From the sequence record KJ748011: 39,093 bases of DNA. One strand, 5' to 3'. The DNA comes from Escherichia phage PE3-1. The position numbers and the translations under genes were made by a program. This document shows positions 1 to 39,093 of the stretch, in pieces; position 1 is the stretch's first letter, and the number at the start of each line of letters is the position of its first letter. The notes under the pieces are model-generated. The model was given only the letters and a program-made list of their open reading frames with translations, was not told the DNA's origin and ran no database searches.

Positions 1-738
1 GGGGGGACCTTATAGTATGCCGACTAAAAGTTAGCATATAGGTAAGGACTATAGGTCTCCATATAGTCAGGAGGGTGATATTAATCATAATCCCTCCAAT
101 ACAGATAGTCACCGACCATAGATACAGGAGGTATGTAGCATATGGCAAAGACCAAAGCTGTACTTAAAGCTCTGGCGACCAATCGAGCTACATACAGGTT
201 TCTTGCTGCTGTTCTACTTGCTGCTGGCGTTACTGCTGGAAGTCAGTGGGTCGGGTGGGTCGAGACTCTCGTATGTTCTCTGGTCTCTCAGTGTAGTTAA
301 CGCAATCATGGTAACGATTCATGAGCGGAAGACCTAAGGTCAGTACGTGGATAAAGACTCACTCTACTGACCTTAGCTACTGTAGGTCAAGGACTTTAGG
401 TAACACCTTAATAGAAGCTCACTTAGGGTCATCCTACTTATTGGTCTATCCTAGTGTCGCCTGACCTACGGTCCTTGACCTACAGTAGCTGCCACCTACA
501 GTCTTCGATGAGTTTTGGACCAAAAGTTTGAGACCACATCTCACAGTTCAAGAACCTCAAGTCTCCCCATAGGCCCTCTTTAAGTCCAGACCAAAGGCCC
601 TGCCCCTAGACCTTCGGTCTAAACTTCAGGTCGTTGACTCAAGGTTGACCCATAGTCCTGACGATAGGTCTAGGCTATGGCTGGAGGTCAGGACGATAGG
701 TTGGGACTATTGGTCTTCTCTGAGTCTCTATCTGTAAT

Positions 739-2965: not shown

Positions 2966-5647
2966 ATGAGCGTCATCTCCATTGACAAACACGACTTCTC
3001 TGACGTGTCGAACGCAATTGAGCCGTTTAACCTGCTGGCCGACCACTACGGGCAGGACCTTGCAGTAAAACAGCTTCAGCTTGAGCATGAGGCATACACT
3101 GAAGGCGAGCGACGTTTCATCAAGAACCTTGAGCGCCAGACAGAGCGCGGGGAACTGGCAGACAATCAGGTCGCCAAACCTTTGATGCAGACTCTGGTCC
3201 CTAAGATTGCGCAAGCCGTCAAGGAGTGGCATGAAGGCCCAGACGGGAAGCTGTCAACCTCTCGTCCTAGCGTAGCGTTCACCATGTTGAGCACTGAAGA
3301 GAAGGCCGTAAAGGACCGCTCTCTGCGCATCTCCTGTGAGTCTGCTGCGGTCATCATACTGAAGGTCATCCTCTCCAAGCTGGTCAAGCCTGAAGGTATC
3401 CCGATTACACCGATGGCCTCCGCGATAGGCCGTACACTTGAGGATGAAATCCGCTTCGGTCGCATTCGTGACAAGGAGCAGGAGCACTTCAAGAAGGCGA
3501 TAGCTGAGAACCTGAACAAGCGAGCCGGGGCATCCTATAAGAAAGCCTACATGCAAGCGGTTGAGACCTCCATGCTGGAGCAAGGTCAACTGGAAGATGC
3601 GTGGGGTACTTGGAGTCCGACCGAAGCGGTACACGTTGGCATCAAGATGCTTGAGATTGTCATCCAGTCTACACAACTGGTTGAGCTTAAGCGTTACGGT
3701 GCTGGCAATGCAGCGACTGATGTTGAGATGGTCCACCTGTCAGACTTCTGGGTAAAGAAGATGGCACAACGTGGATTCAGCCTTGCGGGTATTGCGCCAG
3801 TCTATCAGCCTTGCGTCGTTCCACCTAAGCCGTGGACGGGTGTCGTAGGTGGTGGGTACTGGGCCAAAGGTCGCAGACCATTACCACTGATTCGCTTAGG
3901 GTCTAAGTCTGCGGTAGCACGTTACGAAGACGTGTATATGCCTGAAGTCTACGAGGCAGTAAACATCATCCAGAATACACCTTGGAAAGTGAACAAGAAG
4001 GTGCTGGACGTGGTGAACATGGTAGAGAAGCTGAACAATACGCCTATTGATGACATCCCTCAGATGGAACCACTGAAGCCTGAGGACTATGCGGGTGAGA
4101 CCGAGGAGGAACTCAAGGCATGGAAGAAGGCTGCTGCTGGCATCTATCGCCGCGAGAAGGCCAGACAGTCACGCAGATTGTCACTGAGCTTTATCGTCAA
4201 CCAAGCGAATAAGTTCTCTCAGTTCAAGGCCATCTGGTTCCCATACAACATGGACTGGCGCGGTCGCGTCTACGCTGTGCCGATGTTCAACCCTCAGGGT
4301 AACGACATGCAGAAGGGTCTCCTGACTCTGGCAGTCGGTAAGCCTATTGGTGCTGATGGTTTCAAATGGCTGAAGGTCCATGGTGCAAACTGTGCGGGTG
4401 TCGATAAAGTCACCTTCGAGGAGCGCATCAAGTGGGTGGAAGACAACCACGACAACATCATGGCTGCTGCCAAAGCCCCGATGGATAGCATTGAGTGGTG
4501 GGGCAGGTTAGACTCTCCGTTCTGCTTCCTTGCGTTCTGCTTCGAGTATGCTGGCGTAATGCACCACGGCCTGTCTTACTCCTGCTCGCTACCGATAGCG
4601 TTCGATGGGTCCTGCTCTGGGATTCAGCACTTCAGCGCGATGCTTCGTGACCACATCGGTGGACATGCAGTAAACCTGACGCCATCCGGTAAGGTCCAAG
4701 ACATCTACCGCATCGTGTCCGACCGCATTGAGGAGGAGCTTAAAGTCCTGCTGGTTAACGGTACGGACAACGAGATGGTAACTCACGAGGACAAGAAAAC
4801 TGGTGAGATTACCGAACGTCTCAAGCTGGGGACACGAGAGCTGGCCCGTCAGTGGCTGACCTACGGTATGTCACGCAAGGTCACTAAGCGTTCGGTCATG
4901 ACTCTGGCCTACGGGTCGAAAGAGTATGGCTTCGCAGACCAAGTTTACGAGGATATCGTGATGCCAGCGATTGATTCAGGGTCTGGCGCTATGTTCACTG
5001 AACCAAGCCAAGCGTCTCGCTTCATGGCTAAGATGATTTGGGAAGCTGTGAGTGTGACCGTAGTTGCTGCGGTTGACGCGATGAAGTGGCTGCAAGGTGC
5101 TGCCAAGCTGCTGGCTGCTGAGGTGAAGGACAAGAAGACTGGTGAAACCCTGAAGCCTTGCCTTCCGGTACACTGGGTCACACCTGATGGTTTCCCTGTC
5201 TGGCAGGAATACCGCAAGAAGGATACTACTCGTCTGAACCTTATGTTCCTAGGGTCATTCAACCTTCAGCCTACAGTCAACAAAGGCACTAAGAAGGAGC
5301 TGGACAAGCACAAGCAGGAGTCAGGCATTAGCCCGAATTTCGTCCACTCGCAAGATGGTAGCCACCTCCGCAAGACTGTAGTCCACACGCACCGCAAGTA
5401 TGGCGTGATGTCATTCGCAGTGATTCACGATAGCTTTGGGACCATCCCGGCTGACGCTGAATATCTGTTCCGTGGCGTCCGTGAGACGATGGTTGAGACC
5501 TACCGAGACAACGATGTGCTGCTTGACTTCTACGAGCAGTTTGAATACCAGCTACATGAGAGTCAGCGCGACAAGCTGCCTGAGCTTCCGAAGAAAGGTA
5601 AACTGAATATCGAAGACATCTTGTCTTCAGACTTTGCATTCGCTTAA
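2966..5647 (+). CDS. 1: Single-subunit DNA-dependent RNA polymerase (T7 gp1 family)
   Basis: 893 aa, collinear with T7 RNAP along its length (e.g. FPYNMDWRGRVYAV, LPLAFDGSCSGIQHFSAMLRD, FALIHDSFGT, C-terminal SDFAFA). Confidence 0.98.
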   Translation: MSVISIDKHDFSDVSNAIEPFNLLADHYGQDLAVKQLQLEHEAYTEGERRFIKNLERQTERGELADNQVAKPLMQTLVPKIAQAVKEWHEGPDGKLSTSRPSVAFTMLSTEEKAVKDRSLRISCESAAVIILKVILSKLVKPEGIPITPMASAIGRTLEDEIRFGRIRDKEQEHFKKAIAENLNKRAGASYKKAYMQAVETSMLEQGQLEDAWGTWSPTEAVHVGIKMLEIVIQSTQLVELKRYGAGNAATDVEMVHLSDFWVKKMAQRGFSLAGIAPVYQPCVVPPKPWTGVVGGGYWAKGRRPLPLIRLGSKSAVARYEDVYMPEVYEAVNIIQNTPWKVNKKVLDVVNMVEKLNNTPIDDIPQMEPLKPEDYAGETEEELKAWKKAAAGIYRREKARQSRRLSLSFIVNQANKFSQFKAIWFPYNMDWRGRVYAVPMFNPQGNDMQKGLLTLAVGKPIGADGFKWLKVHGANCAGVDKVTFEERIKWVEDNHDNIMAAAKAPMDSIEWWGRLDSPFCFLAFCFEYAGVMHHGLSYSCSLPIAFDGSCSGIQHFSAMLRDHIGGHAVNLTPSGKVQDIYRIVSDRIEEELKVLLVNGTDNEMVTHEDKKTGEITERLKLGTRELARQWLTYGMSRKVTKRSVMTLAYGSKEYGFADQVYEDIVMPAIDSGSGAMFTEPSQASRFMAKMIWEAVSVTVVAAVDAMKWLQGAAKLLAAEVKDKKTGETLKPCLPVHWVTPDGFPVWQEYRKKDTTRLNLMFLGSFNLQPTVNKGTKKELDKHKQESGISPNFVHSQDGSHLRKTVVHTHRKYGVMSFAVIHDSFGTIPADAEYLFRGVRETMVETYRDNDVLLDFYEQFEYQLHESQRDKLPELPKKGKLNIEDILSSDFAFA

Positions 5648-6530: not shown

Positions 6531-7553
6531 ATGACAACTATCAAAACCAACCCGCACCGCGCTGTAGATTACTCTGAGTCAGGCGTTACGAAAGCACTGG
6601 CAGTAGCAGGGTCGCTGGAAGCTGAAGTGAAGTATGACGGTGTGCGGTTGAACCTTCCGGTGCTGCGAGAGGGTGAGACTTATTGGTTAAGCCGTGAGTC
6701 TAAACCACTACCAGCACTTGAGTGGATGAACTCTGAGTTAGGCAATGCGTGGACTCAGGCTGACTGGAGGTGGTTCCTTCGTCAAGCTGGCTATGAAGGT
6801 ATCGGCCTAATGATTGATGGCGAGGTCATGGTCAAAGGTGTTGACTTTAATACGTCCTCAGGTCTCATTCGAACCAAGTGGCTCAAGCCTAACAACGAGG
6901 AGTTCGCTGAATGCTATTCGGGCCGTGGCAAGAAGGTCCCGTTCTGGGTCGCCCGGTCACGACTTAAGGTTGTGGTTTACGGTATTGTCGACATGACAAC
7001 CATTGCTGACCCGAAAGCAGAAGGTCCTATCCACAGCGTCACACGCCTGAAGGCCGAAGCTATCGTCCCTCTCCTCCAGAAATACTTCCCGGAAATCGAC
7101 TGGGTTCTGTCTGAGTCGCACACGGTCTATGACCTTGAGTCGCTCAACTCCCTGTACGAACAGAAGCGTCTGGAAGGACACGAGGGTCTGGTAGTCAAGG
7201 ACCCGCTGGGTAAATACAAGCGTGGCAAGAAGTCAGGCATGTGGAAAATGAAGCCAAGCGAAGAGGCAGATGGTCACGTTGTTCGTCCGGTGTGGGGAAC
7301 GGAAGGTTTAGCCAACGAAGGTCTGGTCATTGGGTTTGACGTTATGCTTGAGAACGGGATGGAGGTCTCCGCAACTAACATTAGTCGCGCCCTTATGTCC
7401 GAGTTCACAGAGAACGTCAAGTCAGACCCAGATTACTACAAAGGGTGGGCCTGTCAGATTACCTACATGGAGGAGACACCAGATGGAAGTTTGCGACATC
7501 CGTCATTCGACCAGTGGCGAGGGACTGAGGACAATCCTACAGTCAAGATTTAA
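6531..7553 (+). CDS. 1.3: ATP-dependent DNA ligase
   Basis: 340 aa; adenylation motif KYDGVR (Lys in EVKYDG); synteny with T7 gene 1.3. Confidence 0.95.
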   Translation: MTTIKTNPHRAVDYSESGVTKALAVAGSLEAEVKYDGVRLNLPVLREGETYWLSRESKPLPALEWMNSELGNAWTQADWRWFLRQAGYEGIGLMIDGEVMVKGVDFNTSSGLIRTKWLKPNNEEFAECYSGRGKKVPFWVARSRLKVVVYGIVDMTTIADPKAEGPIHSVTRLKAEAIVPLLQKYFPEIDWVLSESHTVYDLESLNSLYEQKRLEGHEGLVVKDPLGKYKRGKKSGMWKMKPSEEADGHVVRPVWGTEGLANEGLVIGFDVMLENGMEVSATNISRALMSEFTENVKSDPDYYKGWACQITYMEETPDGSLRHPSFDQWRGTEDNPTVKI

Positions 7554-7944
7554 GGTTGACCGGACGGCTCCTTCGGGAGTCTCCAACCTGAAGGGTAAAC
7601 ACTTAGGTTATCGACGCAAGGACGGCTACTGGATTATAAACACAACCAAGGGTCAACTCCTTGCCCACCGGGTAGTCTGGGAGCTAACTCACGGTCCGAT
7701 ACCGGAAGGAATGGTTATTGACCATATAAACAGAGACCCTTCTGATAACCGCATTGAGAACCTAAGGTGTGTGACTCAGGCAGTGAACCTGACGAACGTC
7801 GCCGTCCGTAGCCACTGCAAGTCTGGCGAGAAGTATATTAACTTTGAGCCAAGGACTGGTCGCTGGCAACTGAGGATAAAGCGTAAGTCATACGGTACGT
7901 TCGCTACCATAGCCGAGGCGGTAGCCTTAAGAGATTCATTATAA
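7483..7944 (+). CDS. HNH homing endonuclease with C-terminal AP2-type DNA-binding domain
   Basis: HRVVWELTHGPIPEGMVIDHINRDPSDNRIENLR plus AP2-like GRWQLRIKRKSYGTFATIAEAVALR; start at ATG 7483 with GGAGGAG RBS, overlapping the ligase 3' end by 71 nt (track ORF 7330 extends upstream in the same frame). Confidence 0.85.
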   Translation: MEVCDIRHSTSGEGLRTILQSRFKVDRTAPSGVSNLKGKHLGYRRKDGYWIINTTKGQLLAHRVVWELTHGPIPEGMVIDHINRDPSDNRIENLRCVTQAVNLTNVAVRSHCKSGEKYINFEPRTGRWQLRIKRKSYGTFATIAEAVALRDSL

Positions 7945-9754: not shown

Positions 9755-10204
9755 ATGACGCTGAAAGAGAAACTGGAGGCTTACTCTAAGGTTTCTCCTT
9801 CGGGATGCTGGGAGTGGCAACGCTCCCGGACTAAAACTGGTTATGGTCAAATAGCTATAGGTCATCAGAAACAGGACTATTCTCACCGAGTTTCGTACAG
9901 GGAGTACAAAGGTCATATACCTGATGGATTGGTTGTTAGACATAAATGTGATAACCCTTGCTGCTGTAACCCTGAGCACCTTGAAGTTGGGACTCAGAAG
10001 GACAACATGCAGGACTGCGTGAAGCGGGGACGTCACTCGAAACCGCCAGTATTCGAAGGAGAAGCTAATCACAAGACTAAGCTGACCGAGGAAGACGTAG
10101 CGTTTATCCTGAAGTCCAAGCTGAGGCCTATAGAACTTGCTAAGATGTTTGGCGTTACTCCGCAAGCTATTAATTGGAGACGCAAGAATGGCAAGAACGA
10201 TTAG
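9755..10204 (+). CDS. HNH homing endonuclease
   Basis: 149 aa; GCWEW..GYG..HR.....G.IP.GLVVRHKCDNPCCCNPEHL..GTQKDN is a classic phage HNH signature; starts 1 nt after the SSB stop. Confidence 0.85.
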   Translation: MTLKEKLEAYSKVSPSGCWEWQRSRTKTGYGQIAIGHQKQDYSHRVSYREYKGHIPDGLVVRHKCDNPCCCNPEHLEVGTQKDNMQDCVKRGRHSKPPVFEGEANHKTKLTEEDVAFILKSKLRPIELAKMFGVTPQAINWRRKNGKND

Positions 10205-11579: not shown

Positions 11580-11795
11580 ATGATTAAACTTATTGAATTT
11601 CTAGGTCGTCTGGTGGTGCGTGGTTATCGTCGTGCTGCGGTTCTGGAACGAAAGGTAGAAAAGAAGACTGCTGATGATGCGGCTGATGCTGCTGCTCTGG
11701 CTGACAAGCTGACCATCGCATCACTGGAAGCTGGCATGAAGGCTCGTCAGGCTGATACCAAAGCTAACCAGTTGGCTCAGTTCTTCAAAGACTAA
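11580..11795 (+). CDS. Hypothetical protein (71 aa), Ala/Lys-rich, predicted helical
   Basis: ORF with AAAGGAG RBS immediately after lysozyme. Confidence 0.55.
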   Translation: MIKLIEFLGRLVVRGYRRAAVLERKVEKKTADDAADAAALADKLTIASLEAGMKARQADTKANQLAQFFKD

Positions 11796-11813
11796 ACTAT
11801 CACCTTAGGGATG
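11792..11813 (+). promoter_or_regulatory. Phage RNAP promoter variant CTAAACTATCACCTTAGGGAT (phi3.8 position)
   Basis: Two substitutions in the -5 to -3 region; probably weak. Confidence 0.5.
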
Positions 11814-11863
11814 GGACCATGAGTCCTGTCCCTTTGTTCGCATTTATGATTAAGGAGTGACCA

Positions 11864-13692
<1,829 letters not shown>

Positions 13693-36286: not shown

Positions 36287-36736
36287 ATGCTCGAATTTTT
36301 AAAGAGAGCGGCTCCGTGGTTACTTGCAGCAGTGATGTTTGCTGGTGGCTACCACACCGCTAACAATAAGTGGGAGGCTAAGGTCAATGCAGAATACACC
36401 TCGAATCTTAAGGCATCGGAAGATACAAGGCTTGCTGTCCAAGCTGAAGTCAACAAAGTGTCCAAACGGTTTCAGGACGAAATGTCCTCGCTGGAAGGCA
36501 GCACTGATAGGATTATTGCTGACCTTCAGTCTGACAATAAGCGGCTGCGCATCCGAGTCAAACCTACGAGTGGAGCCACGCAAAGTGACGGTCGATGCAT
36601 CGTTGATGGTTACGCCGAACTTGACGAACGAGATGCTAAACGTCTTATCGCCATCGGAGTGAAAGGAGACAAGTGGATTAAGGCCCTTCAGGACACTGTG
36701 AGAGCCTTGCAGCAAGATAAGGAGGTGACGCATTGA
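36287..36736 (+). CDS. 18.5: Rz-like i-spanin (gp18.5)
   Basis: 149 aa; MLEFL, N-terminal TM segment, [42 protein letters not shown] match T7 gp18.5. Confidence 0.93.
36387..36662 (+). CDS. 18.7: Rz1-like o-spanin lipoprotein embedded in the +1 frame of Rz (gp18.7)
   Basis: Lipobox LTISGC after a hydrophobic stretch, Pro-containing short mature region; ATG 36387 is the only in-frame ATG upstream of the lipobox, about 100 nt into Rz; start uncertain. Confidence 0.6.
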   Translation: MQNTPRILRHRKIQGLLSKLKSTKCPNGFRTKCPRWKAALIGLLLTFSLTISGCASESNLRVEPRKVTVDASLMVTPNLTNEMLNVLSPSE

Positions 36737-38493
36737 GTAAAGACTTAGTGGCGCGTCAGGCGCTAATGACAGCACGTATGAAGGCAGACTTCGTGTTCTT
36801 CCTGTTCGTATTATGGAAAGCTCTGTCACTCCCAGTCCCGACTCGCTGTCAGATTGACATGGCGAAGAAACTATCGGCTGGGGACAACAGGCGTTTCATC
36901 CTACAGGCGTTCCGTGGTATCGGGAAGTCCTTCATTACGTGTGCATTCGTGGTCTGGAAACTATGGAACAACCCAGACTTGAAGTTCATGATTGTGTCTG
37001 CCTCAAAAGAACGAGCCGATGCTAACTCCATATTCATCAAGCGAATCATCGACCTCATGCCTCAGCTTCAGGAACTCAAACCTAAGCAGGGACAGCGAGA
37101 TGCGGTTATTAGCTTCGACGTTGGGCCAGCCAAGCCAGACCACTCACCTTCGGTTAAGTCTGTTGGTATCACTGGTCAGTTGACTGGTAGTCGTGCTGAC
37201 ATCCTGATTGCCGATGACGTAGAGGTTCCGAACAACTCAGCGACTCAGGCCGCACGAGACCGTCTGTCAGAGCTTGTGAAAGAGTTCGACGCTATCCTGA
37301 AGCCGGGAGGTACAATCATCTATCTGGGTACTCCTCAGAACGAGATGACCCTGTATCGTGAGCTGGAAGGTCGTGGGTATACCACTACTATCTGGCCCGC
37401 TCGTTATCCACGCGATAAGAATGACTGGCAGTCTTACGGCGACCGTCTGGCTCCTATGCTTCAGGCAGAGCTGGAAGAGGACCCTGAGTCATTCTACTGG
37501 CGTCCGACCGACGAAGTACGCTTCGATGATACGGACCTGAAGGAACGTGAGCTGTCATATGGCAAGGCTGGCTTCGCTCTACAGTTCATGCTTAACCCGA
37601 ACCTGAGTGATGCTGAGAAGTACCCTCTAAAGCTCCGTGACCTTATCGTAGCCGACTTGGACCCAGCGTCCAGCCCAATGGTCTACCAATGGTTGCCAAA
37701 CCCTCAGAACAAGCGTGAGGACGTTCCTAACGTTGGACTCATGGGTGATTCATACCACACGTATCAGACTGTAGGTTCTGCCTTCAGCTCGTACACCCAG
37801 AAGATTCTGGTCATTGACCCTAGTGGTCGTGGTAAGGATGAAACTGGCTATGCGGTACTGTACCAGCTAAACGGCTACATCTTCGCTATGGAAGTTGGTG
37901 GCATGCGTGGTGGTTATGAAGACTCTACGCTGGAAGCCTTGGCTAAGATTGGTCGTAAGTGGAAGGTCAACGAATACGTCATTGAGGGTAACTTCGGTGA
38001 TGGCATGTACCTTGAGCTATTCAAGCCTGTAGCGGCCCGTATCCATCCTGCGGCTGTAACTGAAGTGAAGAGTAAGGGTCAGAAAGAACTCCGCATCTGT
38101 GACGTTCTGGAGCCTATCATGGGGTCTCACCGACTTATCGTTAACGCTGCTGCTATCGTCCAAGACTACCAGTCAGCCTCTGATAAGGATGGTGTTCGTA
38201 ACCCTATCTACTCTCTCTTCTATCAGATGACCCGTATCTCTCGTGAACGTGGAGCCTTGGCACACGATGACCGACTTGATGCGCTGGCTATCGGTGTACA
38301 GTTCTTCGTTGAGTCTATGGCTAAGGATGCCAACAAAGGCGAACGTGAAGTCACTGAGGAGTGGCTGGAGGAACAGATGGAGAACCCACGGAAAGGCTTC
38401 GAGTCCATCCACACTGAGTTCTGGGACAATGGGGTCCGGGTAACTCACGATATGGACGAGCTTGGACTAGGGTCATACGTTACGTTCCACTAA
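36733..38493 (+). CDS. 19: Terminase large subunit (gp19)
   Basis: Collinear with T7 gp19 ([80 protein letters not shown]); TTG start at 36733 with AAGGAGG RBS (alternative ATG 36766). Confidence 0.96.
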
Positions 38494-38509
38494 TAGGAGG
38501 AGGAGAAAC

Positions 38510-39052
38510 ATGAGTAAACAGAAGGCCATCGACAGGGTGGCCCTCTTTAATCACTATGCTTATGTAGATGGTGAGTTGGTGTGTAGGAAACCTTATAAAG
38601 GATCTCGCAAGAAGCCCGGTGAGGTAATGGGACATTCAGTTCATCCGTCTGGGTACGCAATCGTGAAGGTTCTTGGCAGTCGGTATAGACGTGCCAGAAT
38701 CATCTACAGCCTAGTCGTTGGTCGAATACCTTCTGGCATGATGGTTGACCATATCAATGGTGATAGACTTGATGACAGGCCGGATAACTACAGGTTAGTA
38801 ACAGCATTAGAGAACCGATGGAACTCAGGAGGTGGCGATACTAATGGTCTACCCAAAGGTATCAGCTTTTTCAAGCCTACCGGAAAGTATCGCGCTCAGT
38901 TGCGCCTAAAAGGTAAGTGCTTCACGAAGACCTCAGATTCCATAGAGGAACTAGAGGTGTGGCTTGATGCTTTACGCACTGAGAAGCACAAGGAATACGC
39001 AGTAAACCGACGGTCCCCTAAGCGTGATAGGACCCATAGAAACCACAAGTAA
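38510..39052 (+). CDS. HNH homing endonuclease with AP2-type DNA-binding domain (second HNH-AP2 copy)
   Basis: 180 aa; GMMVDHINGDRLDDRPDNYRLVTALEN plus AP2-like GKYRAQLRLKGKCFTKTSDSIEELEVWLDALR; strong GGAGGAGG RBS. Confidence 0.88.
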   Translation: MSKQKAIDRVALFNHYAYVDGELVCRKPYKGSRKKPGEVMGHSVHPSGYAIVKVLGSRYRRARIIYSLVVGRIPSGMMVDHINGDRLDDRPDNYRLVTALENRWNSGGGDTNGLPKGISFFKPTGKYRAQLRLKGKCFTKTSDSIEELEVWLDALRTEKHKEYAVNRRSPKRDRTHRNHK

Positions 39053-39066
39053 ATTCAATAGGTTAA

Positions 39067-39088
39067 CTTAACTATCACTATAGGGATG
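39067..39088 (+). promoter_or_regulatory. Phage RNAP promoter CTTAACTATCACTATAGGGAT near the right end (phiOR position)
   Basis: Consensus match; 27 nt from the end of the window. Confidence 0.8.
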
Positions 39089-39093
39089 GGGGG

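Follow-up and report, generated by a model that had tools for sequence, protein, structure and literature searches.

The window analysed in this study, the 39,093-nt sequence record KJ748011 of Escherichia phage PE3-1, represents the complete genome of a K1F-like relative of T7 in the genus Kayfunavirus. The following features lie around the end of the record and, across the record junction, at its beginning.

36733 to 38493, plus strand: terminase large subunit gene (T7 gene 19 homologue), assigned from the open reading frame (ORF) and the terminase/maturase annotation in phage JSS1 and relatives
38494 to 38509, plus strand: 16-nt spacer with the Shine-Dalgarno run AGGAGGAGGAG, read from the sequence
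38510 to 39052, plus strand: HNH-AP2 endonuclease gene, an intact ATG-to-TAA ORF of 180 aa
39066 to 39086, plus strand: promoter-type site of the phage RNA polymerase, ACTTAACTATCACTATAGGGA, equivalent to phiOR, an exact match to the pattern
143 to 298, plus strand: gene 19.5 homologue of 52 aa, found by tblastn with T7 gp19.5 (E 4.7e-4 at 160-288)

The terminase large subunit gene, which is conserved and essential, is located directly 5' of the HNH gene and shows ca. 96% nucleotide identity across Kayfunavirus. Its stop codon is TAA in the phages carrying the HNH gene (HNH+) and TAG in those without it (HNH-). The HNH gene starts in the context TAATAGGAGGAGGAGAAAC-ATG, and the Shine-Dalgarno-type run before it is kept in all orthologues. 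A pattern search of the genome for phage promoters gave 8 sites, all on the plus strand, against 0 expected, with no site between 33423 and 39066 including the 16-nt spacer; the HNH gene is thus presumably a late gene that is read through from gene 19. The site at 39066-39086 has the same relative position as T7 phiOR and is kept in both the HNH+ and the HNH- haplotypes (13 of 13 aligned phages). These coordinates confirm the initial annotation of the HNH gene as lying between the terminase gene and the promoter. The position had also been described as the one where T7 carries gene 19.5, and this did not hold: in T7, the end of gene 19 (39130) is followed by phiOR (39229), and gene 19.5 (39389-39538) lies 3' of this promoter, while PE3-1 has a 19.5 homologue of its own at 143-298 and the HNH-less relatives have a 91-bp non-coding spacer. 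Close to the start of the HNH ORF, within its initial 45 nt, a hairpin (GGCCATCGACAGGGTGGCC then CTCTTTAATC) was observed at 38524-38552, inside a stretch of ca. 65 nt that is identical in five orthologues. This hairpin could damp the expression of the HNH gene; with one terminator-like site observed against 0.7 expected, it is not significant.

The record of Escherichia phage JSS1 (KX689784.2, species Kayfunavirus PE31), which is 99.98-100% identical to that of PE3-1, is reversed in orientation and circularly permuted relative to it (PE3-1 812-39093 corresponds to JSS1 39024-742, and PE3-1 1-738 to JSS1 738-1). The PE3-1 record was opened inside a direct repeat, GGGGGGACC followed by GGGGGGACC (39088-39093 joined to 1-6), just 3' of the phiOR-type promoter, and JSS1 has three more bases (ACC) at this junction. 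The gene 19.5 homologue, which is kept in all relatives, adjoins the HNH gene without a break in JSS1; in PE3-1 it lies 3' of the promoter, across the artificial junction of the record. The true gene order is gene 19, HNH gene, promoter, gene 19.5 and right terminal region. Homology with the K1F end places the physical right end of the virion DNA near position 728. Since the genome continues at 1-728 owing to the circular permutation, the location of the HNH gene "at the right end" is valid for the record and not for the virion DNA. Tandem repeats of ca. 19 bp (CAACAACCATAGGTCTCAA) were observed at 729-830, straight after the inferred genome end, that is, at the physical left end.

The 180-aa protein encoded by the HNH gene was divided into four parts.

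38510 to 38695, plus strand: N-terminal beta-rich region, residues 1-62, from the AF2 model and the profile alignment with I-HmuI
38696 to 38824, plus strand: HNH (His-Me finger) catalytic core, residues 63-105
38852 to 38989, plus strand: predicted AP2-fold DNA-binding domain, ca. residues 115-160, made up of three beta strands and then a helix
38990 to 39049, plus strand: basic C-terminal tail KHKEYAVNRRSPKRDRTHRNHK, of low confidence by pLDDT

The match of residues 63-102 to Pfam HNH_3 (PF13392) scored 53.5 bits (cut-off 24.8, E 1.8e-14), and HNH_3 was the only HNH family of Pfam to be matched. The best PHROG was phrog_99, "HNH endonuclease" (6.6e-40), and NCBIfam gave no match for any of the three HNH proteins of this genome. 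An alignment-based profile search gave more than 6,800 relatives (the first word-indexed search gave 4 proteins), and a family alignment of 71 members was used with the 180-aa protein as its first sequence. In this alignment, D80, H81, N93, R95, and N105 show no variation, and N102 shows almost none. When the family profile was compared with solved structures, I-HmuI (PDB 1u3e) was matched over the N-terminal two thirds (2e-9) and the DH...N...N residues of the two were aligned, D80-H81, N93, and N102 corresponding to D74-H75, N87, and N96 of I-HmuI. These residues would form the HNH active site, and the predicted structure has a beta-beta-alpha-metal fold like that of a solved member. Profile positions 26-115 align to I-HmuI residues 20-115, and the N-terminal region, in which the AF2 model places strands at residues 16-19, 22-25, 50-54, and 57-60 with a pLDDT of ca. 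90 or higher, matches the N-terminal DNA-contacting part of I-HmuI. This region is the most variable part among the orthologues, with a divergence peak at 38569-38630.

The Pfam AP2 profile (PF00847) matched neither the whole protein at E<=1 nor the isolated C-terminal 75 residues at E<=10; it was matched individually by 47 of the 71 aligned relatives (best 1.4e-11). The AP2 domain of the relative P0004 (residues 122-171, 7.8e-9) aligns to residues ca. 115-160 of the 180-aa protein. At positions 106-162, the family profile matched the plant AP2/ERF domains of WRI1 (4.8e-10), TEM1 (2.6e-6), ERF096 (1e-3), and, weakly, AtERF1 (0.02). The predicted structure of this part is a three-stranded antiparallel sheet on one helix, superposable on solved AP2 domains. 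By predicted fold and family profile, the label "HNH-AP2" given in the initial annotation is correct, and the AP2 domain is divergent in sequence: the domain stands on the profile and the fold, but not on a Pfam AP2 match in the protein itself. The proposal of an intact HNH and AP2-fold endonuclease gene of the homing type was likewise supported. The basic tail is conserved among the orthologues, and its pLDDT is 73 for residues 161-170 and 42 for residues 171-180 (<50 for residues 173-180).

I-HmuI is an intron-encoded HNH nicking homing endonuclease of Bacillus phage SPO1, whereas the 180-aa protein is free-standing and only ca. 21% identical to it. According to the paper on its structure, I-HmuI reportedly binds DNA via a C-terminal helix-turn-helix region, in place of which the 180-aa protein has the predicted AP2-fold domain. 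The plant AP2/ERF domains (AtERF1, 1gcc/2gcc; TEM1, 7et4; WRI1, 7wq5) belong to transcription factors without a nuclease domain. The combination of HNH and AP2 is a recognised architecture of phage homing endonucleases (PMC10448857), and HNH-AP2 homing endonucleases are described there from phages, cyanobacteria, and protists, a statement credited in that paper to its reference 45. Members of the family resemble the 180-aa protein in their N-terminal HNH and C-terminal AP2 domains, their free-standing genes, and their location beside essential genes including terminase; at boundaries of genetic exchange, genes of this kind are said to cluster beside those essential genes (PMC10448857). ICP1-like phages carry an "IPA-HNH" class of the family that is described as too divergent for the HNH_3 Pfam profile (PMC10448857), unlike the 180-aa protein, which has a clear HNH_3 match but a divergent AP2 domain without a Pfam match. 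T7 gp3.8, which is annotated as an HNH endonuclease, is a member of the family from the T7-like phages and is similar to the 180-aa protein in the HNH and AP2-like parts (tblastn, 34.6% identity over residues 13-118 of 121, E 1.5e-14), but its gene is at another locus (before gene 4), and the protein is shorter and lacks the N-terminal 60 residues.

The domain structure also bears on the possibility that the protein is a catalytically dead relic, left with the sole role of regulating the phiOR promoter or the gene 19.5 region by AP2-type DNA binding. In line with such a regulator, the orthologues show good conservation of the AP2-fold domain, the gene abuts the promoter, the sequence after the promoter co-varies with the presence of the gene, and several HNH-core positions conserved in the family are changed in the post-terminase lineage (N89D, I91P, and L94Y). 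These core changes also count against a homing enzyme, as does the missing Pfam AP2 match. However, the catalytic D-H...N...N residues are kept in 8 of 8 orthologues, purifying selection extends across the whole protein and not the AP2 part alone, and the promoter is identical in the HNH- phages. A catalytically dead regulator is very unlikely because the catalytic residues are kept.

Orthologues with 84-100% amino acid identity were found in only 13 phage records (12 phages), all of them Kayfunavirus and all with the gene directly after the terminase gene. The next relatives are <60% identical, ca. 31-40% among the matches listed. A scan of IMG/VR gave no further close orthologue at any locus and only relatives at 31-44% identity; there is thus no evidence for the post-terminase lineage at other sites. 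The gene is absent from most of the 518 records with the shared terminase, including K1F, SD6, LM33_P1, TM1, and Vec13, in which the terminase is ca. 96.5% identical at the nucleotide level and a 91-bp spacer is present instead of the HNH gene. On a neighbour-joining tree of the terminase, HNH+ and HNH- phages are interleaved, and the terminase of PE3-1 is equally close to both. The HNH gene is therefore an optional cassette: its presence or absence is polymorphic at a fixed locus, and its distribution does not follow the phylogeny of the flanking genes, as is expected of a homing gene.

The same distribution bears on a packaging function. HK97 gp74 is likewise an HNH nuclease encoded beside terminase genes, and a factor of this type, required for concatemer cutting by terminase, would fit the direct adjoining of the gene to that of the terminase large subunit; the idea has been raised for terminase-neighbouring HNH genes (PMC8861465, which cites Kala et al. 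2014 for it; PMC10448857). However, such a factor should not be absent from K1F, LM33_P1, SD6, TM1, Vec13, and most of the 518 same-terminase records, and T7 packages its DNA without any such gene at the post-terminase position. The gene is located 3' of terL, not 5' of terS at a cos site, and the phage is of the T7 type, its DNA ending in direct repeats (as indicated by the repeat_region features in Ro45lw and Vec13); the domain type of the protein is HNH_3 plus AP2 with no other HNH family matched. The differences from the HK97 gp74 type thus concern distribution, position, packaging type of the phage, and HNH subfamily. We regard a packaging factor of this kind as extremely unlikely; judged by gene distribution it is close to refuted, and an HK97 gp74-type terminase partner was ruled out on distribution and context.

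The two haplotypes were compared in an alignment of eight HNH+ and five HNH- phages. Their sequences separate at the third position of the stop codon of the terminase gene (TAA in HNH+, TAG in HNH-), and the conserved 91-bp spacer of the HNH- phages corresponds to the Shine-Dalgarno site, the 543-bp gene, and 13 bp in the HNH+ phages. In the spacer after the terminase stop codon (L002-L004, L012, and L013), two short inverted repeats, CTGCATGAATACGCAG and TAGTAACCTATAGTTACTA, were observed. Approximately 100 bp 3' of the promoter are also haplotype-specific, and the haplotypes rejoin ahead of gene 19.5. In view of this difference beyond the promoter, the polymorphism is a replacement and not a clean insertion, which counts against homing. 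Sliding-window identity and dS showed no excess identity among the HNH+ phages in the last 100-300 bp of the terminase gene; there is thus no clear co-conversion tract on this side, which also counts against homing, but the ca. 100 bp 3' of the promoter do co-vary with the gene. In pO91 (L007, ca. 3800-4060), the HNH+ type of post-promoter sequence is followed by a (CA)n run and then, in tandem, by the HNH- type. This hybrid junction looks like a recombination scar or end point.

The initial annotation had considered that the gene might be disrupted in the real phage, with the intact ORF due to a sequencing error. All eight orthologues, which are from independent phages, have exactly 180 codons and no stops, and the HNH gene is thus not a sequencing artefact. 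Pairwise dN/dS values among them were 0.04-0.29 with a median of 0.08, the highest values coming from nearly identical pairs with very few substitutions. Between HNH allele groups, dS was 1.0-1.5, against 0.11-0.43 in the adjacent terminase gene of the same pairs. In a sliding window, the island of divergence was confined to the interior of the gene and the flanks were 95-100% identical; at least three HNH allele groups were distinguished, with flanks ca. 96-100% identical. The PE3-1 copy is itself a mosaic: its 5' two thirds are SR04-like (83-98% identity, mostly >90%), and at 38899-38990 the identity to SR04 is only 62-72% and that to CHRF_30001 and pO91 is 78-93%. The divergence island and the internal mosaicism would fit repeated exchange of the cassette between lineages. 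This deep, constrained, and mosaic divergence within nearly identical flanks is the only mildly unexpected feature of the locus, and a highly diverged but strongly constrained gene between such flanks is mildly interesting for population genetics.

Long-term purifying selection fits recurrent homing and a function useful to the phage equally well. In the latter case, the gene would encode a domesticated, beneficial nuclease, which excludes or degrades co-infecting relatives without copying itself, or processes DNA near the concatemer junction or phiOR. The strength of the selection, dS values of up to 1.5, the absence of degenerate copies (0 of 8 orthologues), and the constant position beside the terminase gene, ca. 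770 bp from the physical right end, are consistent with domestication, and homing and packaging-related roles need not exclude each other (Barth et al., PMC10448857). However, low dN/dS is also expected from selection for homing alone, the gene is missing from most close relatives with a ca. 96% identical terminase and is therefore dispensable for the K1F-type life cycle, and its scattered occurrence on the terminase tree is what marks a mobile optional element. Its dispensability and scattered occurrence speak for a selfish rather than a domesticated gene, and we consider the latter unlikely. It is quite unlikely, too, that the cassette is no simple selfish passenger but a long-lived, selected nuclease whose deeply diverged, recombining alleles differ in target specificity; if this were the case, the locus would be one of inter-phage competition (exclusion) beside the packaging/concatemer-junction region, with balancing or arms-race selection acting between K1F-like phages that circulate together.

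Taking these observations together, 38510-39052 is most probably a free-standing HNH-AP2 homing-endonuclease gene. As an optional cassette in a K1F-like phage, it has gene 19 on one side and the phiOR-type promoter on the other. The product would be a single-chain enzyme composed of the N-terminal beta-rich region, an I-HmuI-like beta-beta-alpha-metal HNH site with D80-H81, N93, and N102 as its predicted active site, and the C-terminal AP2-fold domain, and most likely it is a late product of read-through from gene 19, translated from a strong ribosome-binding site of its own. A specific DNA site would be bound by the AP2-fold domain, probably with the help of the N-terminal beta region, as in I-HmuI. 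In a co-infection, the single HNH site may then nick or cut the DNA of a cassette-less relative at or near the junction of gene 19 and the spacer, and recombinational repair off the cassette-bearing genome would copy the cassette into the HNH-less relative. Carriers would be protected because in them the cassette takes the place of the 91-bp spacer, from the final base of the terminase stop codon onwards.

The gene is labelled "HNH homing endonuclease" in the JSS1 record and HNH endonuclease in those of Ro45lw, YIO1-1, Esher7, and CHRF_30001. With the annotation already in place and a well-described family, the finding is substantively correct but ordinary, and it has little significance beyond correct annotation. 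K1F-like phages are in use in therapy studies, and an optional nuclease cassette is a point in which they differ; the cassette also marks a recombination boundary beside the terminase gene. Phages of the JSS1/PE3-1 type (HNH+) and K1F/LM33_P1 (HNH-) would make a convenient, nearly isogenic pair for measuring HNH-AP2 homing in a T7-like phage.

Three further HNH loci were found in the PE3-1 genome.

7483 to 7944, plus strand: ligase-adjacent HNH-AP2-type gene (Pfam HNH_3, 1.5e-22; phrog_99)
9755 to 10204, plus strand: intact HNH_3 gene of the T7 gene 2.8/7.7 type (Pfam HNH_3, 7.8e-15)
11861 to 12011, plus strand: remnant (pseudogene) of a gene 3.8-type HNH-AP2 gene, found by tblastn with T7 gp3.8

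With the post-terminase gene, there are thus three intact genes with HNH_3 matches and one gene-3.8-like pseudogene, as had been proposed; a family HMM run on six-frame ORFs of >=15 aa gave no fourth HNH_3-like ORF below E ca. 1. The 9755-10204 protein matched T7 gp2.8 in tblastn (42% identity, E 8e-30), and it had no AP2 match in Pfam and a weak HTH_24 match (E 0.26) at its C-terminus. The remnant, which was detected only with T7 gp3.8 as the query, has a frameshift and a deletion of the HNH core, such that the N-terminal 28 and the C-terminal ca. 25 residues are in different frames (11876-11947 corresponds to gp3.8 residues 3-26 and 11928-12005 to residues 94-119). Its place, 3' of a promoter-type site (11791-11811) and ahead of the primase/helicase gene, is that of gene 3.8 in T7, where phi3.8 lies on the 5' side.

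The possibility that the post-terminase and ligase-adjacent proteins are unrelated was also considered in the initial annotation, which took them to share the HNH core and the C-terminal domain. They are homologous: the BLASTP match (35% identity over 109 aa, E 2e-13) spans both parts, and both match phrog_99. Their description as a paralogous pair within the genome was not sustained. In the 71-member alignment, the 7483-7944 protein ranks only 50th of 70 by identity to the 180-aa protein, and the latter ranks 68th of 70 for the 7483-7944 protein, whose own relatives reach 58-92% identity. T7 gp3.8 (E 1.5e-14) is about as near to the 180-aa protein as the ligase-adjacent copy is (E 2e-13). The two proteins are separate lineages within one large family. 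Read from its first ATG, the ligase-adjacent HNH ORF shares 71 nt (7483-7553) with the 3' end of the ligase gene (6531-7553), and only a 78-aa C-terminal fragment of it, from the internal Met of MVIDHIN, is annotated in JSS1.

The number of homing-type genes had been called unusually high for a genome of this size. However, T7 is annotated with genes 2.8, 3.8, and 7.7 as endonuclease/HNH genes in 39.9 kb, and further homing-type genes occur around genes 18-19 in relatives, YIO1-1 and SR04 among them; three such genes are a normal load for a T7-like phage. A similar arrangement is described for Hafnia phage Ca, in which homing-type genes lie between genes 18, 18.5, and 19 and spontaneous loss of such a gene was reported (PMC8861465). 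In relatives of PE3-1, homing-type genes were observed between genes 18 and 18.5 and between genes 18.5 and 19, none of which is present in PE3-1 (L005, 369-644 and 1098-1481; L007, pO91, 1101-1487; L008, 1014-1451; L012, 703-1104). The inserts between genes 18, 18.5, and 19 account for the poor identity at the 5' end of the terminase gene in those relatives, and the lower overall identity of the HNH+ records is due to the HNH gene itself and to other inserts at the terminase 5' end.
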